A DNA stretch of 64,000 nt, from the NCBI GenBank assembly GCA_964618635.1, contig CAZUDM010000004.1, positions 10,739-74,738 on the forward strand, read 5' to 3'. The number at the start of each line of letters is the position of its first letter. The stretch's first letter is position 1. A model generated the notes under the pieces. The model was not told where the DNA came from. It searched no databases and worked only from the letters and a program-made list of their open reading frames with translations. This document shows, piece after piece, positions 6,634-17,385 of the stretch. A program made the position numbers and the translations under genes. The stretch is from an uncultured Spirochaetia bacterium (GTDB lineage Bacteria > Desulfobacterota_D > UBA1144 > Nemesobacterales > UBA2774).

Positions 6634-7326
6634 TTGCCCATTCGGACCCGATTGGATAGATTTCTGGGTATGAAAGTCAGAGGCGGGCTCTACATTATTA
6701 CAGACCGGAAGCTTATACCGAGGGAGCGTTTCGCGGAGACTGTCGAGGCGGCAGTCAGGGGCGGCGCGAGCATACTTCAGCTCAGGGAAAAGGACACGCC
6801 GCGGGATGAAATCGTAGAGATCGGCAAAGAGCTTTTAGTTATAACGAGACGTTACGGGATTCCGCTAATTATCAACGATTCCCCCGAGCTTGCAGCCGAG
6901 ATAGGAGCCGACGGGGTGCATCTGGGTGAGGAGGACGCCGGAATCGCGCACGCGCGGAGCGTGCTCGGGGAAGGCGCGATTATAGGGGTGTCGTGCTACG
7001 GGAAGATAGAAAGGGGGCTTGACGCCCTTGCCGGCGGCGCGGATTATGTCGCCTTCGGGACGCCTTATAATACGCCCACGAAGCCCGGAAGAACGCCGAC
7101 ACCCTTTGAGGTTTTGAGGGAGGCCGCGGCCCGGATAAAGGACATCCCGGTATTCGCGATCGGGGGCATAACGGCGGAGAACGCGGCGGACGTTCTCGAA
7201 ACCGGGGTAGACGGCATAGCCGTCATCACGGGCGTTTTCGGCGCGGCCGACCCGGAAAAGTCCGCGCGCGAGCTCGCCGGTATAGCAAATTCCTATCTCG
7301 AAAAGAAAAAGACCGGCCCGATCTAG
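6634..7326 (+). CDS. thiE: Thiamine-phosphate synthase
   Basis: YIITD...LQLREK...GADGVHLG...IGGI motifs. A TTG start at 6634 is preceded by AGGGGAG; the alternative ATG is at 6670. Its stop overlaps the leuS stop. Confidence 0.85.
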
Positions 7327-9809
7327 AGCACTATATTCACGAGCCTCTTCGGAACCACTATGACCTTCCTGGGCTCCTTTCCCGCGAGGAAGCTTTTGAT
7401 TTTCTCGTCGGCGAAAGCGGCCTCTTTCATCTCGTCCTCGCTGGAGTCGGGATTCATAGAAAGCTGGCTCCTGACCTTGCCGTTTACCTGGAGAACTATC
7501 GTTACGGCCGCGCCGGCTACGAGGCTCTCGTCCCACTTGAGCCAGGGCTCGTCGACGAGGGAATCGCCGCAGCCGAGCTCTGCCCAGAGCTCTTCAGTTA
7601 CGTGGGGGGCGATTGGATAGAGAAGCCTTACCATCGCTTCTATAGACTCCCTTAAAACGGAGGTGTCGCCCTCCCCTTCGGGCTCGAAGCGCGACGTGTC
7701 GTTAAGGAGCTCCATCACGGCGGCGATCGCGGTATTGAACTGAAATTTTTCGAGGTCGTCTGTGACCTTTTTTATCGTTTTGTGAACCTTCACGCGTAGC
7801 GCCTTGCCCGGCTCTGAAATGGCGGCGGGGTCGGGCGAGGCTTCGACGTTTTCGATTTTTTCGAACCTGTCGTAAATGAGCCTCCAGAGCCTGCTCAAAA
7901 ATCTGAACGCGCCCTCGATGCCCTCGTCGCTCCAGTCGAGGTCTTTCTGAACAGGGGCCGCGAAGAGCATAAAGACCCTCACAGTATCAGCGCCGAACCT
8001 CGCTATCATGTCGTCCGGGTCGACGACGTTGCCGAGGGACTTCGACATCTTGGCCCCGTCTTTTATGACCATGCCCTGCGTCAGCAGGTTGGAGAAAGGC
8101 TCGTCGAGCCTGCAGAAGCCGAGGTCGCGGAGGGCTTTCGTGAAGAACCTCGCGTAGAGGAGATGAAGTATCGCGTGCTCGATGCCGCCGATGTATTGAT
8201 CGACGGGAAGCCAGTAGTCGACTTCGGACCTGTCGAATATACTCTCGTTGAAATGCGGGGAGGCATACCTCAGAAAATACCACGAGGACTCGACGAAGGT
8301 GTCCATCGTGTCAGTCTCTCGCCGCGCCGCGCCGCCGCACTTCGGGCACGTTGTGTTGACGAAGCTTTCTACCTTCGAAAGCGGCGAGCCGCCCTTACCC
8401 GTGAACTCTATATCGAGAGGGAGCTCGACGGGGAGGTCCTTGTCGGGGACCGGTACGACGCCGCACGTGTCGCAGTAAACCATGGGGATGGGAGCGCCCC
8501 AGTATCTCTGGCGCGAGATGCCCCAGTCTCTCAGCCTGTAATTTATCTGTCTTTTTCCGAAGCCCTTTTCCTCGGCGTATTCGATTATCTTTTGCTTGCC
8601 GTCCTCCGAAGGGAGACCCGTGAACTGTGCGGAGTTGATCATGACGCCCGGCTCTTCGTATGCGGCTGTCATGTCTTCGGCTTTAAGATTCGCCCCTTCG
8701 GGCTCTATGACGGGGACTATGGGTATGCCGTACTCCGCGGCGAACTCGAAATCGCGCTGGTCGTGCGCCGGGACGGACATGATGATGCCTGTACCGTAGG
8801 CGTGGAGGACGAAGTTGGCAATGTAGATCGGCACGCGGGCGCCGTTGAACGGGTTGATTGCGTAGGCACCCGTGAAGACGCCTTCCTTTTTTGCGCCTTC
8901 GGCGATCCTTTCGAGGCTCGTCTGCCGTATGACCCTTTTTATGAATTCCTGCGCCTCTTTTTCCTCTGGCTTACCTTTTATCAGCGCCGCCGCGAGCGGG
9001 TGCTCGGGGGCTATGGCCATGTATGTTACGCCGAAGACGGTGTCGGGGCGCGTCGTAAAAATGCTGAGGCCCTTTTCTCCGCCCGCGGGCTCTTCGAGAG
9101 GGAATTCGATTTCGGCCCCGGTGCTTTTCCCGATCCAGTTCTTCTGCATTGCGAGGACTCTTTCGGGCCAGCCGTCTTTCAGCTTTTCGGCGAATTCCAG
9201 GAGCTCGTCGGAGTATTCCGTGGTTTTAAAGAACCAGCCTTCCATCTCTTTCTGGACGACCTCGGAGCCGCAGCGCCAGCAGTAGCCGTCCTCTACCTGC
9301 TCGTTTGCGAGGACTGTTTCGCACGAGGGGCACCAGTTGACCGTCGTCGATTTCCTGTATGCGAGCCCTTTCTCGTACATGCGCGTGAAGACCATCTGCT
9401 CCCATTTATAGTAGGACGGGTCGCAGGTGGCGATTTCGCGTGTCCAGTCGTAACTGTAGCCGAGCTTTTTGAGCTGTGCCTTCATCTGGGCGATGTTCTC
9501 GTAGGTCCACTTGGCGGGATGGACGCCCCTTTCGATGGCGGCGTTTTCCGCGGGGAGGCCGAATGCGTCCCAGCCGATGGGATGGAGGACGTTGTAGCCC
9601 ATCGTCCTCTTGAAGCGGGCGATGACGTCGCCGATGGTGTAGTTCCGGACGTGGCCCATGTGGATGCGGCCCGAGGGATAGGGGAACATTTCGAGGACGT
9701 AGTACTTGTCCTTCCCCTTTTCGGCGTGGACTTCGTAGAGCCGCTTTTCGGCCCATTCGTCCTGGTGTTTTTTCTCTATTTCGTGTGGCTTATAGCTTTC
9801 TCTCATCAC
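7323..9809 (-). CDS. leuS: Leucine--tRNA ligase
   Basis: 828 aa. HMGH and KMSKS class-I motifs and a LeuS-specific editing domain. Confidence 0.95.
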
Positions 9810-10135: not shown

Positions 10136-10960
10136 ATGAGCAGAGAGCGCGAATTAAAAGAGATAGCCGGGGATTTGAGGCGGTACTATGAATTCCAGAA
10201 AGATATGGGGGTGAAGAGGGTATTCAGGGAGAGAGGAGAGCGTGCCGCCGAAGAGAATACAGAAAGGAAGTATCCCGGATGGGAGGAAACCATGACGCCG
10301 AAAAAAACAACCGCCAGAGAAGACAGGGGAGCCGCACCGAAAGAGGAGGTAATCAACGTCCCGGAGCAGATGGGGATGTTCGACTCGTCCACGAAGATAA
10401 TGCCGCTCGAAGAGATAAAGAAGGAGCTTCTGGAGAAGATGTCTTCGAGGCTCTTCGAGGGAAGCAGGCAGATCGTTTTCGGCGAGGGGAACCCGAAGGC
10501 GAGGCTCGTATTCGTCGGCGAGGCCCCGGGACGGGACGAAGATATTCAGGGGAGGCCATTCGTCGGAAGGGCCGGGCAGCTCTTAAACAAAATAATCGAA
10601 GCCATGGGGCTTAAGAGGGAGGATGTATATATCTCCAACATCGTGAAGTCGAGGCCGCCCGACAACAGGACTCCTACCCCGGAAGAGATGGCGGAGTGGG
10701 AGCCGTTCCTGTTCCAGGAGTTGAGATCGATAAACCCGGAGGTGGTGGTGTGCCTTGGAAGCACGGCGGCACAGTCGATCCTTAAGACGAAGGCTAGCCT
10801 CGGGAGCCTACGCGGAAAATTTCACCGTTACGGAAAGTTCAAAGTCATGGTAACTTATCATCCAGCCGCGCTTCTCCGGAACCCGAACTTCAAGAAGCCC
10901 CTTTGGGAAGACATGCAGCAGGTCATGAAGGAGCTTGGAATTTCCAGACCGGGCGATTAG
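10136..10960 (+). CDS. udg: Uracil-DNA glycosylase, family 4, with an N-terminal ~90-aa extension
   Basis: GEGNPKARLVFVGEAPG...GRPFVGRAG motifs of family-4 UDG. The stop codon lies inside the tRNA acceptor stem. Confidence 0.85.
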   Translation: MSRERELKEIAGDLRRYYEFQKDMGVKRVFRERGERAAEENTERKYPGWEETMTPKKTTAREDRGAAPKEEVINVPEQMGMFDSSTKIMPLEEIKKELLEKMSSRLFEGSRQIVFGEGNPKARLVFVGEAPGRDEDIQGRPFVGRAGQLLNKIIEAMGLKREDVYISNIVKSRPPDNRTPTPEEMAEWEPFLFQELRSINPEVVVCLGSTAAQSILKTKASLGSLRGKFHRYGKFKVMVTYHPAALLRNPNFKKPLWEDMQQVMKELGISRPGD

Positions 10961-11026
10961 CTCAGTGGATAGAGCGCAGGCCTCCGAAGCCTGAGGTCGG
11001 GGGTTCGAATCCCTCATCGCCCGCCA
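10951..11026 (+). tRNA. tRNA-Arg (anticodon CCG)
   Basis: GGGCGAT acceptor 5' pairing with ATCGCCC; D arm GCTCAGTGGATAGAGC; anticodon stem CAGGC/GCCTG with loop CTCCGAA; T arm GGGGGTTCGAATCCCTC; discriminator G and encoded CCA. Confidence 0.9.
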
Positions 11027-11190
11027 TTGGTATTCAGAGATCTTTTTATCATGCCTATAATCATATTTCAGTATCCTTGTTAACTTTATCTAATCGGCAT
11101 ATAATTAATTTACTTGTTCAATGATGCGCAGTTGGGTACAAGCATTATTGTCCGGCATACATAAATAGCGTTAGATACAGGAGGTTCAAA

Positions 11191-11433
11191 ATGAGCGAAT
11201 TAGTTTCGAAGAAGTACAACAAAGTTCATACAACTTCAGCAATAGTTCAGATATTGGACTTGACTAGAACGGGTAGCTCTATAGAGCTTGAGATGTCTTC
11301 CAAAGGAGAAAAGCTGGGAACGCTGGTTATAGGGCGGGGATCATTTAAATGGTATCCAAAGCACTCGAAAAAGAACCATGTTCGGTTGGATTGGACAACT
11401 TTTGCCGAAATCATGAAAGGATACGGCAAATGA
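11191..11433 (+). CDS. Hypothetical 80-aa protein on the AT-rich island segment
   Basis: Strong RBS ACAGGAGG 7 nt upstream of the ATG. Low-GC codon usage matches the island. No recognisable domain. Confidence 0.4.
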   Translation: MSELVSKKYNKVHTTSAIVQILDLTRTGSSIELEMSSKGEKLGTLVIGRGSFKWYPKHSKKNHVRLDWTTFAEIMKGYGK

Positions 11434-11480
11434 ATGTGAAGCTGTAAAATTCACGAGTGGGTTTTAATGAACCAGCATCA

Positions 11481-11522
11481 AAGCCTGAGGTCGTGGATTC
11501 GAACCCCCATCGCCCGCCATGG
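11481..11522 (+). repeat. att-like imperfect direct repeat of the tRNA-Arg 3' half (copy 2)
   Basis: AAGCCTGAGGTCGTGGATTCGAACCCCCATCGCCCGCCATGG, against tRNA 10986-11029 AAGCCTGAGGTCGGGGGTTCGAATCCCTCATCGCCCGCCATTGG. Confidence 0.8.
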
Positions 11523-11742
11523 TTTAACACCAATTTAGTGTTGATTGGTTGAAATTTTCCATCTTAAACACTATAATGGGCTACACTAGATTCTGTAAAT
11601 TCCTTTTCAATCAAACAGGTTACAACAATTTTGGGAAATCATAGAAATAGATAAAGGAAGTTATTATGAATGCTTATTAGCCAGAACAATTAGACCAAAT
11701 TGACTTAATTAAACGAGTTTTAAGTTGAGCTAAGGAAAAGTC

Positions 11743-14490
11743 ATGAAACTCACCGATAAGCAATGGGAAGCTATCAATCACTCTCGAGGCAATCTTCAGC
11801 TCATTGCATGTGCCGGTTCCGGTAAAACTGAGGTAGTTGCTCGTCGAGTCGTTACCTTGTTGACACCAGCAAATAAACATTCCGTTCTCCCCAGAAACAT
11901 CGTAGCATTCACCTTCACTGAAAAGGCAGCAGCTGAGCTGAAAGAACGGATTTACGAGAGATGCCGTGAAATATTAGGTGATGTGAATGGACTTGCTGAA
12001 ATGTATGTAGGTACCATTCACGGATTCTGCCTGGAACTACTCAAGAGTGAAGTACCCAAATATAGCAAGTTCAATGTGCTTAACGAAGTTCAACAAATAC
12101 TATTTATAAATAGACTATCTTCAAGAAGTGGACTTACTACATCAACAGATTTATCTGGAAAACAACTCAAACGTTATACGGATACAGGTATCTATTCTAG
12201 CGCATTATCAATCCTTCGCGAAGCTTCTGTCGATAACGAAGCTCTCGAGGGATGCTCAGTAATGGAAGGAATGGAAGCATACAGATCCCTTTTAGATGAC
12301 CGCAGCTATCTTGATTATTCTGCTATCCTGGATGAAGCAGTCGAGGCTCTATACTCAGACAATGATCTTAGAAATAGACTAGGTGAACGAGTTAAGCATG
12401 TAATAGTTGATGAATATCAAGATGTAAACCCAATACAAGAGTCAGTTGTCCGTGTTCTGCACGATTTAGGAGCAAATCTTTGCGTTGTAGGTGATGATGA
12501 TCAAGTTCTATACCAGTGGAGAGGAAGCGATGTTCAAAATATTCTTACCTTTGAAGAACGCTATGCACCCGTCAAACAGGTTAAGTTGGAAGGTAACTTT
12601 CGATCAAGCGAGGGTATAGTCGAAACTGCAAGGGCATTTATCGAACAAAATTCAGAGCGTCTCCCCAAACAAATGAAACCAGAGGGTGCTCAGAATTATG
12701 AATCTGGCGATATTGTAGCCCTTGGTTTCGACAATCCGGACGAGGAAGCCCAATATATAGCCCAGACATGTAAATCACTCTTAGGTGTAGCTGTAAAAGA
12801 ATCCGGGGGTAAAGAACGAGGTGTTGCATGGTCGGATATGGCAATTTTGCTTAGGAGCGTCGCACATAATGCGAAACCTATTACGAAAGCACTTGATGTA
12901 GCGAATATCCCATATCTTGTCGTTGGCATGAACGAGTTATTCGCAACACCCGAAGCCGCAGCGGCACGTGAACTATTTCACTTCATGGCTGGGCGCATTG
13001 ACGAAAAATCTGTTTTGAAGGCATGGGAGGCAGCTCAGACAGGTTCGTCACGTTCCGAACTTCGGAAAGCAATTCAAGCGGCGGCAAAAAGTCGAGATGA
13101 TATGGCTAAGGGTGGGGAGCGGTTTTCTATTTATTCTCCCCAGCGTGTATTTCTTGATTTTTTAGAAAATGCAAATATTCGAGAAGAAAAAGTTCCGGGT
13201 GATTCCAGTAAGTGTGAAATACTTTTCTACAACCTAGGCAAGTTCAGCCAAGTAATTTCGGACTTTGAAGCAATACATTTCTTGTCCGAACCTATTGAAA
13301 AATACAAAACATTTGCGAGCTTTCTCGAGCATCATGCCGTGAAATCATACCCAGAAGGGTGGCAGTCTAACCAATACGCTAATCCAAATGCGGTGCGAAT
13401 TATGACAGTGCATCAAGCTAAAGGCATGCAGTGGCCGGTTGTATTTATTCCGGCCCTATTGAAGAATCGGTTTCCATCCAAAAAACATGGTGGACCAAGT
13501 GTTTGGCAACTCATTCCAAAAACGGCAGTTGAGGGCCAAGAGCGTTATGAAGGTAGTCTCGAGGATGAGCGGAGGCTATTCTATGTTGCCATGACTAGGG
13601 CTCAGAAATTTCTGCATATGACATGGGCTCCAGTACTCGATAACCAACTATATAAGAAGGTTTCTGAGTTTTGGGAAAATGTACTCTCTTCAAAATACGT
13701 TAAACGTCGCCAGCAAGATTACTCAAATAGAAAACGGCTTAAAGCCACTCCAAAGGCGGGGATAGCAAATGTAACACTAACTTTCTCAGACATGAAATAC
13801 TTCTTTGAATGTCCGTATCAGTTTAAGTTGCGCATTCTATATGGGTTCAATGCCCCCATACACGAAGCATTGGGTTACGGTAAGTCTTTACATGATGCAC
13901 TGGCAGAGGTACACACAAGGGTAATCAATGGAGAAAAGGTTGACGAATCGAACGTTCCAGAGCTGATAAAAACACATCTGCATACTCCATATGCGTACGC
14001 AAAATTAAAAGAAAAACTTGAGATGGCAGCCAAGAAGGTCGTGACGGACTACATTGTAGACAACAAGAAAGAATTCAACAATATAGAATTCTCAGAAAAA
14101 CTCATCGAAGTTAACATGGGAGATGGTGTATCAGTTGTTGGCCGTATCGATTTGGTACGACGAAAAGATACTGACGAAACCAGCATAGTCGATCTCAAAT
14201 CAACTGATCGGGCACAGGCAGAAGATGTAACCGAAACTCAACTCCACATCTATGCACTTGGTTATAATGAACTCACGGGGCGTAATGCAGACTTTGTCGA
14301 GATATACAATCTTGATGAACGCAAAAGGAAACCACGTTCGGTTGACGAGGGATTCTTGAAGGAAGTGAAGACCAAGGTAAAAGGCGCAGCCGAAACCCTC
14401 CGCAACGGCAAGTTGAACCCATCACCTTCTCTAAAAAAGTGTACAAGTTGCGATTACCAACGTATATGTAGTGCTGCCAAATTAAAATGA
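11743..14490 (+). CDS. UvrD/PcrA-like SF1 helicase fused to a C-terminal Cas4/AddB-type PD-(D/E)XK nuclease with a 4-Cys cluster
   Basis: Helicase motifs: AGSGKT (Walker A), DEYQD, GDDDQ, VHQAKGMQWPVVF, YVAMTRA. C-terminal nuclease motifs: FFECPYQF, GRIDLV, VDLKS, QLHIYALGY, and CTSCDYQRIC (C-X2-C-X5-C). GC is about 45% against ~60% in the flanks. RBS AAGGAAAAG. Confidence 0.85.
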   Translation: MKLTDKQWEAINHSRGNLQLIACAGSGKTEVVARRVVTLLTPANKHSVLPRNIVAFTFTEKAAAELKERIYERCREILGDVNGLAEMYVGTIHGFCLELLKSEVPKYSKFNVLNEVQQILFINRLSSRSGLTTSTDLSGKQLKRYTDTGIYSSALSILREASVDNEALEGCSVMEGMEAYRSLLDDRSYLDYSAILDEAVEALYSDNDLRNRLGERVKHVIVDEYQDVNPIQESVVRVLHDLGANLCVVGDDDQVLYQWRGSDVQNILTFEERYAPVKQVKLEGNFRSSEGIVETARAFIEQNSERLPKQMKPEGAQNYESGDIVALGFDNPDEEAQYIAQTCKSLLGVAVKESGGKERGVAWSDMAILLRSVAHNAKPITKALDVANIPYLVVGMNELFATPEAAAARELFHFMAGRIDEKSVLKAWEAAQTGSSRSELRKAIQAAAKSRDDMAKGGERFSIYSPQRVFLDFLENANIREEKVPGDSSKCEILFYNLGKFSQVISDFEAIHFLSEPIEKYKTFASFLEHHAVKSYPEGWQSNQYANPNAVRIMTVHQAKGMQWPVVFIPALLKNRFPSKKHGGPSVWQLIPKTAVEGQERYEGSLEDERRLFYVAMTRAQKFLHMTWAPVLDNQLYKKVSEFWENVLSSKYVKRRQQDYSNRKRLKATPKAGIANVTLTFSDMKYFFECPYQFKLRILYGFNAPIHEALGYGKSLHDALAEVHTRVINGEKVDESNVPELIKTHLHTPYAYAKLKEKLEMAAKKVVTDYIVDNKKEFNNIEFSEKLIEVNMGDGVSVVGRIDLVRRKDTDETSIVDLKSTDRAQAEDVTETQLHIYALGYNELTGRNADFVEIYNLDERKRKPRSVDEGFLKEVKTKVKGAAETLRNGKLNPSPSLKKCTSCDYQRICSAAKLK

Positions 14491-14758
14491 GGGAGATTTA
14501 TGACGACTAAAAGTAAACCAAAATAATCCGAAATCCGAAAAGAAAGTACACATTCTCTTTAAGAATCGCCAAATCCGTCATATTCCATAGGCCGATTCCT
14601 ATGGCTTAAGCACGCCATATTCTCCATCTAATTGTTTCATGCAGTTTTATGAAGACCCGTTCCGCCCTGGAAATAGGGCAAGCATTACACACTACGGCTG
14701 CTAAAAAGGAATGTGGATATGGAGAGAATGATTTATACTTTATATCAGGGTGAGAACA

Positions 14759-14905
14759 ATGAGTACAAAAAAAGCTTTTCTCACATACGTAGGCAATAGA
14801 AAATGGAGAAAAGTTAGAAGGTCGAAAACTCCCGCCGGAAGAGATTATCTGAGATACGCCGGGAACAGGAAATGGAAAAGAGTCAGCTCTGTCCATGACC
14901 GATAA
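14759..14905 (+). CDS. Putative 48-aa basic micro-protein with internal tandem repeat
   Basis: MSTKKAFLTYVGNRKWRKVRRSKTPAGRDYLRYAGNRKWKRVSSVHDR. Repeat Y(V/A)GNRKW(R/K)(K/R)V occurs twice. GGGTGAG RBS-like element upstream. A 96-aa antisense ORF (14606-14896) is the alternative. Confidence 0.3.
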   Translation: MSTKKAFLTYVGNRKWRKVRRSKTPAGRDYLRYAGNRKWKRVSSVHDR

Positions 14906-15015
14906 GACCGGAGTTTAAACCGGATTTTCAAATACGGCCTTTCGTCGGGATAGCCTGGAAGCGCTGTTTCCATGATTCTAACTCAAACCTCGCCTGACAA
15001 AAGGGGAGAGGTATA

Positions 15016-15040
15016 GGTTCGAATCCCCATCGCCCGCAAT
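15016..15040 (+). repeat. att-like degenerate copy of the tRNA 3' end (copy 3)
   Basis: GGTTCGAATCCCCATCGCCCGCAAT, preceded by GCCTGA. It matches the T-arm and acceptor 3' strand of tRNA-Arg. Confidence 0.6.
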
Positions 15041-15112
15041 TTGTTCACGCCTTTTACCATTCTTATATCAGACGACACGGCTGGAAAATCAACACTGCAG
15101 AAAGAGCAGACG

Positions 15113-15547
15113 TCAGACAATTCCGTGTTCTTTCAAGAGCGTCTGCTCATCGCCCGAGACCCAGCCGAAAACTTTCGGTCCCTCATCCAGCTTCTGCACA
15201 AAGTAGTGAACATCGAAATCTATATTTGTGTCCGGCCGATCCTTCCGAGCATAAGTTGCCGTCCAAGCAACATGGGCGACACAATGATGTTCATCTATCG
15301 ATGAGATACGGACACTACGTATCCGCATCTCTTTAGTTCCAATCGCCCGATAGCGCGCGTATCCCTGCACCATCACCTGCTTGAGTTTATCGTTGTTCTT
15401 CCCCGTCATAACTCCGGCAGGCGAGGCTGCGATGAATTCCGTCGCGTACAGCGAGGCGACTTGATTTATATTCACGTCGCCACCGAGAGACTGGTTGAAT
15501 AAGCGTTCGTATCGCTCGAATAGTTTCCTTACGACAGCATCCATCAT
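15113..15547 (-). CDS. NTF2-like/SnoaL-like small protein
   Basis: 144 aa. Composition and length are typical of ketosteroid-isomerase/NTF2-fold proteins. It lies between att-like copies 3 and 4. Confidence 0.45.
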   Translation of the reverse strand: MMDAVVRKLFERYERLFNQSLGGDVNINQVASLYATEFIAASPAGVMTGKNNDKLKQVMVQGYARYRAIGTKEMRIRSVRISSIDEHHCVAHVAWTATYARKDRPDTNIDFDVHYFVQKLDEGPKVFGWVSGDEQTLLKEHGIV

Positions 15548-15634: not shown

Positions 15635-15668
15635 ACGTGGGGTTCGAATCCCCCCATCGCCCGGCATT
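15635..15668 (+). repeat. att-like imperfect copy of the tRNA-Arg 3' end (copy 4), distal island boundary
   Basis: GACGTGGGGTTCGAATCCCCCCATCGCCCGGCATT, against tRNA GGTCGGGGGTTCGAATCCCTCATCGCCCGCCATT. Confidence 0.75.
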
Positions 15669-16088: not shown

Positions 16089-16434
16089 CAAACAAGTCTC
16101 ATCTTGTGTATATCGGCTGTGTATTCACATCCTCAGGCGAGGGAAAACCACGCGTCAGGTTAGGGCGCGATTTGTAAATGAGGGCTGGATGAAACCCTTT
16201 ATCCGGCGAGCTGCATCAGCCCGCCCCCCTTACATACCGGCAGTTTAGTCAGGGATCGAAACTCCCTCATACCACCGCCTCTTTTTAAATAATCACGCCT
16301 CTTTGTTTTTAATTTCCAACTGTTTTAGAATATCCGGAGACATATTTTATATACAGGGCCAAGGGGCAGCGGCGCGGGGCTTGTACATGCAAGCGACGCC
16401 GCGAATGGACTTATCAGAGAGAGGGAGGATAGAT

Positions 16435-17385
16435 ATGGAGATCAAGGATCTCGTTAAAAGGGCCCGGAAATTCGCGGAGCCGTTTCGCATTACGAAAGGC
16501 AAGAGCTTCCGGCTTAAGGACATCGATCCCGGGGATACGCTTCATTTACAGTCGGAGGACAAGCCGCGTGCGAAAGAGGTGCTTGCAAACGGCGTGCAGC
16601 TGCTCGCCGAGCTGCAGGATATGCTCTACGCCCAGGACCGCTGGGCGGTGCTCATAATACTCCAAGCGATGGACGCCGCCGGAAAGGACGGCACGATAAA
16701 GCACATAATGTCGGGCGTCAATCCGCAGGGCTGCCAGGTGCATTCCTTCAAGGCTCCGTCGTCGGAAGAGCTCGACCATGACTATCTATGGCGGTGTATG
16801 AAACGCCTGCCGAACCGCGGCAACATGGGCATCTTCAACCGCTCTTATTACGAGGAGACGCTGGTCGTGCGGGTCCACCAGGAATTTCTGGCAAAGCAGA
16901 AATTACCTCCCGAGCTTGTCACGAAGAATATCTGGAACGAGCGCTTTGAAGACATACGCAATTTCGAGAGCTACCTTACGCGGAATGGAATAGTCGTGAG
17001 GAAGTTTTTTCTTCACGTTTCCAAAGAAGAGCAGGAGAAGCGTTTTATCGAACGCATCGAGAACCCGGAAAAGAACTGGAAGTTTTCCGCGAGCGATATA
17101 AAAGAGCGCGCTTACTGGGACGACTACATGAAAGCCTACGAGGACATGATCCGGAACACCGCGACAAGTTACGCTCCGTGGTATGTCGTACCGGCGGACA
17201 ACAAGTGGTTTACGCGCCTGGTGGTCGCCGCGGCGATCATAGACGCGCTGGCCTCTCTCGACCTCCACTATCCGAAGGTGGACAAGCAAAAGCTTGAGGA
17301 ATTAGCCGAGGCCAGAAAGACGCTTTTAAACGAAAAGGGAAACGGGAAGGGCTCAAAGAAAGCTTCTAAAAAGGGAGGCGCATAA
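16435..17385 (+). CDS. ppk2: Polyphosphate kinase 2 (PPK2) family nucleotide phosphotransferase
   Basis: Walker A LQAMDAAGKDGTIK, PPK2 lid (YLWRCMKRLP...GIFNRSYYE), and N-terminal FRLKDIDPGDT motif. Start is taken at MEIK, which has AGGGAGGA-5nt-ATG. The track ORF begins at 16303. Confidence 0.85.
   Translation: MEIKDLVKRARKFAEPFRITKGKSFRLKDIDPGDTLHLQSEDKPRAKEVLANGVQLLAELQDMLYAQDRWAVLIILQAMDAAGKDGTIKHIMSGVNPQGCQVHSFKAPSSEELDHDYLWRCMKRLPNRGNMGIFNRSYYEETLVVRVHQEFLAKQKLPPELVTKNIWNERFEDIRNFESYLTRNGIVVRKFFLHVSKEEQEKRFIERIENPEKNWKFSASDIKERAYWDDYMKAYEDMIRNTATSYAPWYVVPADNKWFTRLVVAAAIIDALASLDLHYPKVDKQKLEELAEARKTLLNEKGNGKGSKKASKKGGA

Follow-up and report, generated by a model that had tools for sequence, protein, structure and literature searches.

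An orphan UvrD-Cas4 helicase-nuclease at a tRNA-Arg gene and its probable link to type III restriction

The subject of this study is a gene on a 64-kb stretch of DNA from an uncultured bacterium (64,000 nucleotides of contig CAZUDM010000004.1, a stretch that we refer to as the window), which encodes a 915-residue protein combining a UvrD-like helicase with a Cas4-type nuclease. By sequence, the protein belongs to the UvrD-Cas4 fusion family and is not a new kind of protein. In this family, the gene is normally the first or the last of a co-oriented and tightly spaced type III restriction-modification (R-M) operon, and the copy described here is a genuine orphan, with neither of the type III genes, mod and res, in the window. 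Our favored interpretation, which we regard as probable, is that UvrD-Cas4 is a restriction-associated, RecB- or Cas3-like processive degrader of cleaved foreign DNA, and that the window copy was left solo by a truncation. Direct support is given below for the architecture of the protein, the conservation of its residues, its fold, its family membership, the operon link of its relatives, the boundaries of the insertion that carries it, and its lack of decay.

Architecture, conservation, and family of the protein

The open reading frame (ORF) starts with an ATG, and the gene and the two predicted domains of its product are as follows.

11743-14490 (+), UvrD-Cas4 helicase-nuclease gene, 915 residues
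11749-13629 (+), predicted superfamily 1A (SF1A; UvrD/PcrA/Rep-like) motor, residues 3-629, delimited by Pfam PF00580 and PF13361, conservation, and Foldseek
13777-14469 (+), predicted Cas4-type PD-(D/E)XK nuclease domain, residues 679-909, delimited by PF12705, PF01930, PADLOC Cas4 models, invariance, and structure matches

An initial annotation of this DNA, made by reading the sequence, had quoted a series of helicase and nuclease motifs in this ORF, and all of them are indeed present. In the motor, these are AGSGKT (residues 24-29), DEYQD (223-227), GDDDQ (250-254), VHQAKG (556-561), and YVAMTRA (614-620). In the nuclease domain, they are FFECPYQF (with C690), GRIDLV (D803), VDLKS (D817 and K819), and QLHIYALGY (Q833 and Y837), together with CTSCDYQRIC, which supplies C900, C903, and C909. 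D803, D817, K819, Q833, and Y837 are the predicted catalytic residues, and the four cysteines, spaced C-x209-C-x2-C-x5-C, are putative ligands of an iron-sulfur (Fe-S) cluster. The three profiles that had been suggested as a check all match, namely UvrD_C (PF13361; 1.6e-40), PDDEXK_1 (PF12705; 3.1e-25, residues 679-909), and Cas_Cas4 (PF01930; 1.1e-7, residues 789-910, with a score of 32.5 against a gathering score of 22.7), as does UvrD-helicase (PF00580; 4.7e-57, residues 3-274). When the C-terminal 265 residues are used in isolation, PADLOC Cas4 models match them down to 1.2e-15, and one of these models is covered end to end (positions 3-159 of 161).

We assessed conservation by aligning 71 full-length relatives, retrieved from genomes, with the window protein. 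The Walker A motif AGSGKT (with K28), DEYQD, GDDDQ, FRS, HQAKG, and YVAxTR are invariant in all 72 sequences, and so are D803, D817, K819, Q833, and Y837 and the four cysteines C690, C900, C903, and C909. Such invariance is far beyond chance and supports the view, already expressed in the initial annotation, that an active-looking SF1A motor is fused to a Cas4/AddB-type four-cysteine nuclease. The catalytic D/D-x-K residues of the nuclease, whose absence that annotation had named as grounds for refutation, are present in every sequence.

The predicted structure points in the same direction. A full-length AlphaFold2 model, with a predicted local distance difference test (pLDDT) of 84.9 and a predicted template modeling score (pTM) of 0.85, has UvrD and PcrA as its top Foldseek matches in the PDB (E ~1e-29), and its full-length matches include AddA, RecB, and AdnA/AdnB. 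Modeling the nuclease domain by itself gave a weaker result (pLDDT 68). This model best matches, in the PDB, ACE1, the AdnA nuclease domain, Cas4 (8D3L and 4IC1), AddB, Exo5, and Dna2, the closest being ACE1, an Argonaute-associated Cas4 enzyme. These structural neighbors all belong to the Cas4/AddB/Dna2/Exo5 group, whose members are iron-sulfur nucleases of the RecB family, and by analogy the window protein may well carry an Fe-S cluster. Searching PDB sequences with the isolated nuclease domain returned no match at E ≤ 1.

None of the NCBIfam equivalogs pcrA, uvrD, rep, recB, and addA scores above its cutoff for the window protein (recB 152.7 versus 696, addA 149.5 versus 708, the others lower). 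The cas4 model TIGR00372 reaches 43.7 against a cutoff of 65, the C...CxxCx5C motif being nonetheless present. PADLOC assigned no named system to the whole protein, for which the best 25 of 64 matches are GajB or RT-helicase models restricted to the motor region; among these 25, there is no full-length match to validated single-gene nuclease-helicase systems such as Nhi or Hna. For the nuclease part, only Cas4, DruK, and Aga-Cas4-like models match.

The top 120 database homologs, from very different phyla, have an identical architecture, are 910-930 residues long and 65-80% identical, and carry generic names only, such as "ATP-dependent helicase." A family of this description was reported by Hudaiberdiev et al. 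(2017, BMC Evol Biol 17:232, PMC5704561), who found that the largest branch of pfam12705 consists of a Cas4-like nuclease fused to a UvrD-like helicase and that this UvrD-Cas4 fusion is monophyletic. Its commonest neighbors were type III Mod/Res, sometimes with WYL/HTH regulators or Schlafen-like ATPases, a second context was Dcm/Vsr, and stand-alone copies were noted; the authors considered the fusion to be probably ancillary to several defense systems and suggested a redundancy with RecB (PMC5704561). The novelty implied by the initial annotation is therefore not upheld, since the fusion, its monophyly, both contexts, and the stand-alone copies were all published then. A 2025 review of R-M biology is silent on both UvrD and Cas4. 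The window protein is the same in kind as the published family and differs by its orphan state at a tRNA-Arg site and by the probable vestige of a mod gene behind it.

How widespread these proteins are was examined in a survey using one genome per species, which yielded 80 loci from at least 12 phyla (neighborhood counts below refer to 83 loci). Clade 1, with 55-75% identity, comprises Pseudomonadota, Acidobacteriota, Gemmatimonadota, Chloroflexota, Planctomycetota, Myxococcota, and others, and clade 2, with ~46% identity, is mostly Actinomycetota. The window protein is 62-80% identical, over its full length, to proteins linked to Mod/Res and nests among them in a neighbor-joining tree. Among 1.84 billion cluster representatives, the nuclease domain has 134 matches at E ≤ 1e-30 and 643 at E ≤ 1e-10, and in complete matching proteins it is always C-terminal on a chain of ~900-1000 residues. 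A phage-encoded origin was rejected, as no INPHARED record covers at least 80% of the protein. Among 2.9 million viral contigs, full-length relatives number only about six, of which the best also carries Mod and Res.

Gene neighborhoods of the relatives

Neighbors were found by clustering all flanking ORFs, and the presence of Mod and Res was scored by tblastn. Clustering revealed two recurrent neighbors on the same strand. The first is Mod-like, a type III methyltransferase of ~860-1000 residues (PF01555; PADLOC MTase_III, 363-875 bits), and the second is Res-like, a protein of ~930-1110 residues with ResIII and restriction-endonuclease domains. One or both are adjacent and co-oriented at about 51 of the 83 loci (48 by tblastn and three more, with a divergent Mod, by clustering), so the single-gene module proposed in the initial annotation is not the normal state of this gene. 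The order is HEL>Mod>Res in clade 1, where HEL is the helicase-nuclease gene, and Res>Mod>(OLD-like)>HEL in clade 2. Spacing is tight, as only 8 nt separate HEL from mod in L090, and HEL overlaps the following gene (DruA) by 4 nt in L003. These findings independently reproduce the type III Mod/Res association published in 2017. Since the Res partner retains Walker A, DEAH, SAT, and QxxGRGLRR motifs and a PD...ExK of its own, it looks self-sufficient, which makes the helicase-nuclease a third, added component.

Every neighborhood inspected shows a defense or mobile-element context, in agreement with the defense-island setting that had been proposed for the window gene. Distant plasmid relatives (28-36% identity) adjoin Dcm and a type II restriction enzyme, and one of these plasmids also has Vsr within a few genes. 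Copies without Mod and Res, which we call solo copies, lie near STAND, HerA, and EAD1-trypsin genes in Sorangium and on a conjugative element in Caballeronia; others stand beside SACS/NOV_C with an SLFN-like helicase, type I R-M, and DUF4238, or among GmrSD, Zeta/RelB, relaxase, and transposase genes. No recurrent addAB-like paired paralog and no second helicase-nuclease or accessory subunit gene was found in the 83 loci or in the window, which bears out the remark in the initial annotation that a partner subunit is lacking. The core-repair operon context that the same annotation had named as a possible refutation was rejected, there being no addAB-like pairing at any of these loci.

These observations bear on a role in repair or self-protection, in which the protein would resect breaks in the manner of AddAB, AdnAB, or RecBCD, so that damage from self-restriction is repaired by recombination. 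Those enzymes, like the window protein, have an SF1A UvrD-like motor and a C-terminal RecB-family nuclease on one chain. The predicted structure resembles AddA, RecB, and AdnAB over the full length, and the modeled nuclease appears most like the four-cysteine Fe-S domains of AdnA and AddB. The Dcm/Vsr context links the family to repair-type functions, and a redundancy with RecB has been proposed, as mentioned above. In AddB and AdnA, however, the Fe-S nuclease sits on a heteromer subunit whose motor is inactive or subsidiary, whereas the Fe-S-type nuclease of the window protein is joined to a motor whose catalytic motifs are all intact, and no partner subunit gene accompanies it. Likening the protein to AdnB/AddB-type enzymes, as the initial annotation did, is apt for AddB, which has an Fe-S cluster, but not for AdnB, since in AdnAB the cluster sits in AdnA (PMC8789073). 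Moreover, no AddB-, AdnA-, RecC-, or RecD-type partner and no second motor occurs in the 83 loci, the NCBIfam repair equivalogs, including those for AddAB and RecBCD, all score far below their cutoffs, and no Chi-recognition apparatus is evident. The gene has a patchy distribution marked by horizontal transfer; it is carried by islands, plasmids, and conjugative elements, not by core genomes, and is missing from the syntenic site of two sister genomes. We consider a repair role improbable.

The survey adds modules that were not stressed in 2017, namely an OLD/GajA-like protein, a Mokosh-like helicase-PLD protein, a DruA-NurA-HerA trio, and Res proteins fused to an S24 peptidase. In the actinobacterial clade, the gene between Mod and the helicase-nuclease encodes an OLD/GajA-like ABC ATPase-nuclease (L074 8232-9992; also L075, L078, L079, and L081); the L074 protein matches PADLOC Old at 2.4e-35 and yields a Gabija-like pair inside a type III R-M operon. 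A 1060-residue Mokosh-like protein is encoded between the helicase-nuclease and Mod in L023 (12721-15903), as well as in L033 and L063; the L023 protein, with MkoA/MkoC matches, has an SF1 helicase, a PLD nuclease, and a Top1-type zinc ribbon. Directly after the helicase-nuclease, DruA (DUF4338, 2e-109), NurA-like, and HerA-like (DUF87) genes form a trio in L034 (9844-14000) and L003 (12757-16852), followed further downstream by Mod/Res in L003 but not in L034. In L085 (3046-9605), with equivalents in L086 and L087, the co-oriented genes immediately upstream encode a 1617-residue SACS/NOV_C protein and a 570-residue SLFN-like/UvrD-like helicase. These three loci hold the closest solo relatives of the window gene, and a related SLFN-like helicase also precedes the helicase-nuclease gene in L003 and L004.

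Two further observations concern the type III partners themselves. In L006 (15297-18614), the Res-like partner carries a C-terminal Peptidase_S24 domain of the LexA/UmuD autoproteolytic type (residues 964-1098, 5e-11), and such a domain is found in about 15 of 36 Res-like partners (lengths 1103-1113). This may hint at restriction that is regulated through RecA and single-stranded DNA (ssDNA), and one might speculate that, in these operons, ssDNA made by the helicase-nuclease could feed back via RecA to switch Res on or off. In L054 (7755-8336), Mod is internally deleted, a 193-residue ORF joining residues ~1-140 to 783-841 of a normal Mod, and the adjoining Res gene (1104 residues) is intact.

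The orphan copy at the tRNA-Arg gene

The features of the window locus other than the gene itself are listed here; no strand is given for segments.

10951-11026 (+), tRNA-Arg (CCG), the integration target; found by ARAGORN, Rfam tRNA 73 bits, present in sister loci L095 and L096
11029-11520, islet A, first part of the insertion, 492 bp, GC 0.40; with repeat families D1-D3, absent from the sister genomes
11521-14550, helicase-nuclease segment, 3030 bp, GC 0.417; from blastn against the sister loci, no right-end repeat
11549-11577 (+), promoter-like site TTGAAA-17-TATAAT, 165 nt upstream of the ATG, with 11 of 12 consensus matches
14491-14528 (+), probable vestige of a type III mod start; GGGAG ribosome-binding site, 5-nt spacer, ATG ACG ACT AAA AGT AAA CCA AAA TAA
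14551-15041, segment X, an older islet common to the sister genomes; 83-85% nucleotide identity to the post-tRNA sequence of L095 and L096
15042-15668, islet C, with a DUF6841 NTF2-like gene (15113-15547, -) and a tRNA 3' copy at 15640-15668

Just past the gene lies what is probably a trace of its former operon. In the nearest relative (P0002/L090; 80% amino acid identity), mod starts 8 nt past the helicase-nuclease stop codon, and its product shows 62-68% identity to members of the Mod cluster. Homology to L090 at the DNA level reaches window position 14547, ~57 nt past the window stop codon (blastn). The window vestige MTTKSKPK*, with its ribosome-binding site, aligns with the L090 Mod start MATKGKGKKPK... 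and the site before it, similarity fading after about eight mod-like codons, close to the edge of the insertion at 14550. From this alignment, it is likely that the element was cut ~50 nt into mod, leaving the helicase-nuclease orphaned.

The helicase-nuclease gene itself shows no decay, and its frame is intact. Among 211 highly conserved columns, the window copy has a single deviation, against a family median of 2 and a maximum of 13. Between the window and L090, the proportion of nonsynonymous differences (pN) is 0.125 and synonymous sites are saturated, which yields no dN/dS, and the measured constraint would predate any very recent deletion. These figures speak to the idea of an inert relic, in which an R-M island was deleted and left behind a gene that has no function but has yet to acquire disabling mutations. 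The probable operon partners are lost, no integrase is present, and the gene is flanked by other decayed, integrase-less islets, all of which would fit a relic. Against it stand the intact frame of 915 codons, with fewer deviations than the family median, and the many solo copies persisting in unrelated genomes, which argue for retained utility. The near-consensus promoter-like site upstream points the same way but is weak evidence, promoter-like sites in the region being no more frequent than in shuffled sequences; a terminator scan of the region found none. We regard an inert relic as very improbable. The orphan is likeliest an active end-degrading enzyme, working alone or with unlinked nucleases, and less likely a silent relic.

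The foreign, low-GC, and tRNA-adjacent nature of the gene, as initially annotated, was borne out. GC is 0.40-0.43 over 11001-15000 versus ~0.55 elsewhere, and GC at third codon positions of the helicase-nuclease gene is 36.5%. The flanks are housekeeping genes, with leuS (7323-9809, -), a UDG-family gene (10136-10960), and tRNA-Arg on one side and PPK2 (16303-17385) on the other; the longest UDG-family ORF overlaps the tRNA-Arg gene by 10 nt. The window LeuRS is 82% identical to proteins of Candidatus Dadabacteria/Thermodesulfobacteriota metagenome-assembled genomes. Two sister genomes, L095 and L096, whose LeuRS is 90-91% identical, share the leuS-UDG-tRNA-Arg...PPK2 backbone, and in both of them the sequence directly after the tRNA's ...CGCCCGCCA is 83-85% homologous to window positions 14551-15037 (blastn). 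Since the sister sequence resumes at window position 14551, the stretch 11029-14550 is an insertion specific to this lineage and placed precisely at the 3' end of the tRNA. This insertion of 3522 bp, with a GC of 0.40-0.42, consists of islet A and the helicase-nuclease segment.

Degenerate copies of the tRNA 3' end, which separate three islets in the window, lie at 11481-11520 (40 nt), 15016-15041, and 15640-15668, and there is no integrase among the ORFs between them. Further tRNA-end copies occur at the same place in the sister genomes, where the remaining interval holds unrelated genes for DUF1003, a pentameric ligand-gated channel homolog, CBAH, SDR, cupin, and beta-lactamase proteins. Because the cargo of the sister genomes is unrelated, the 3' flank of tRNA-Arg can be considered an integration hot spot. 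Such a tRNA-targeted islet is no trait of the family, since four tRNA-adjacent relatives (L009, L027, L028, and L043) have no tRNA 3'-end duplications within 10 kb.

Three small ORFs complete the inventory of the island, and PADLOC assigned no system to any of them. An 80-residue ORF (11191-11433, +) fills islet A, is found elsewhere only in an identical short metagenome contig (L001), and has no Pfam or PADLOC match. In segment X, a very basic 48-residue ORF (14759-14905, +) has two internal copies of the repeat Y-x-GNRKW-[RK]-[KR]-V; its counterparts in both sister genomes show 81-91% protein identity, and no gene is called there in the records of these genomes. The DUF6841 NTF2-like gene is alone in islet C (GC 0.49), between two degenerate tRNA-end copies.

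Proposed role, known systems, and significance

In the role that we favor, Mod would mark self DNA, and unmodified invading DNA would be broken by Res under Mod guidance. The helicase-nuclease would load at the resulting break or nick, unwind the DNA, and pass a strand to its own nuclease, so that the invader would be destroyed processively and restriction made irreversible. By homology to UvrD, PcrA, RecB, and AddA, the motor is expected to move 3'-to-5' on ssDNA, and these homologs also suggest that the nuclease makes single-strand cleavages in the strand leaving the motor; we likewise infer the substrate, a joint action with Res, and whatever activity the orphan may have. The protein would thus be a dedicated RecB- or Cas3-like executioner, independent of the host RecBCD, a frequent target of phage inhibitors. 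Ordinarily it is RecBCD that degrades restricted DNA, and phages, lambda among them, block this through Gam (PMC12707154). The window gene would have come in on a low-GC element that entered at the 3' end of tRNA-Arg, and the orphan may still act on DNA ends made by other nucleases or on linear incoming DNA.

Known systems offer partial parallels. Cas3 of type I CRISPR-Cas is a helicase-nuclease that is recruited after target recognition and shreds DNA processively; the analogy is functional only, because Cas3 joins an SF2 helicase to an HD nuclease and is not homologous to UvrD-Cas4. Cas4 and ACE1 share the nuclease fold, the catalytic motifs, and the C...CxxCx5C pattern with the window nuclease but are stand-alone nucleases of ~200-270 residues with no motor. 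A Cas4 adaptation context is absent, the window neighbors being leuS, UDG, tRNA, and PPK2, and the window contains no cas genes, no CRISPR arrays, and no matches to Rfam CRISPR repeats. ACE1 does set a precedent for a Cas4-family nuclease that boosts another defense nuclease, Argonaute. In Gabija, GajB is an anti-phage motor of the UvrD-like SF1A type, and PADLOC GajB models match the window motor. Solved GajB chains, of only ~490-500 residues, are too short for a nuclease domain of 265 residues and align only to the motor region, at residues 214-307. The window has no OLD-like gene of the GajA type, which occurs in the actinobacterial clade only.

A similar functional proposal concerns Geobacillus Bad (bacterial DNA2-like), a biochemically characterized single chain with an Fe-S Cas4/DNA2-type nuclease and an SF1 helicase, the gene of which adjoins that of a type III Mod-like methyltransferase. 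Its authors proposed that Bad acts in restriction, unwinding DNA and degrading it (PMC7430649). Its domain order is opposite to that of the window protein, as the nuclease is N-terminal. The DNA2-like motor of Bad is of the SF1B, 5'-3' type. Because of the opposite order and the different motor, we view Bad as an independent, convergent fusion. The boosting of Argonaute by ACE1 and the Bad hypothesis both fit the picture of an executioner.

Several points weigh against this role or leave parts of it uncertain. Neither Mod, Res, nor any accessory module of this type is found elsewhere in the 64-kb window, so that a cooperation with Mod/Res cannot operate locally. The mod vestige is short and A-rich, and its in-frame identity past the first codons is only ~50% by eye. 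The initial annotation had described the segment as att-bounded, which is right for the left side, where the 40-nt tRNA 3' copy at 11481-11520 lies, but not for the right, since there is no repeat at the edge of the insertion at 14550. The repeat at 15016-15041, probably the basis for a right att site, belongs to the older segment common to all three genomes. In the model of the nuclease domain alone, pLDDT is low around the cysteines, as expected when the cofactor is absent from the model. Our literature searches found no experimental characterization of any UvrD-Cas4 family member, and the mechanism therefore rests on homology and gene neighborhood. Finally, Mod and Res are absent at 18-19 of ~70 informative loci, the 18-19 all having at least 6.5 kb on both sides (loci outside the ~70 have flanks too short to judge), and these solo copies are scattered among the linked ones in the neighbor-joining tree, so the protein may be useful alone or with other partners.

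This last point is also an argument for an autonomous single-gene defense, the idea of the initial annotation, in which the protein alone would recognize and degrade phage or plasmid DNA, for instance at free ends or replication intermediates, much as stand-alone nuclease-helicase immunity proteins do, its R-M neighbors being mere co-residents of the same islands. The interspersed solo loci lack Mod/Res within 6.5-10 kb, the subclade of the window protein (L005, P0003, P0004, and P0007) is mostly solo in conjugative-element or defense cargo, the orphan shows no relaxed constraint, and stand-alone copies were already noted in 2017 (PMC5704561). However, the Mod/Res linkage is too tight and too recurrent for co-residence, with genes on the same strand separated by 8 nt in L090 or overlapping by 4 nt in L003, and it holds in two clades with opposite gene orders. 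The window copy itself carries a probable mod vestige, and the best 25 of its 64 PADLOC matches include no full-length validated single-gene system. We therefore consider autonomous defense unlikely as the role of the family.

A broader version of the executioner role, which we put forward only tentatively, is that UvrD-Cas4 is portable and partner-agnostic, loading on any break made by a defense system or on linear incoming ends, independently of RecBCD. Its partners may then be type III systems, type II systems with Dcm, OLD, Mokosh-like, or HerA/NurA modules. If so, intact orphans would be functional stand-alone immunity genes and not debris.

Taken together, the UvrD-Cas4 family is widespread, strongly conserved, and tightly wired into type III R-M operons. 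If our favored interpretation of a processive degrader is true, type III restriction has an unrecognized three-component form, in which cutting is coupled to destruction of the target. This would parallel Cas3 in CRISPR and the boosting of Argonaute by ACE1, and it would account for the continued effectiveness of restriction when phages disable RecBCD. The window locus adds little to this beyond a clean natural example, an orphaned but constrained copy with insertion boundaries at base resolution. Such an orphan is useful for asking whether the protein works alone, and the family is a worthwhile experimental target.

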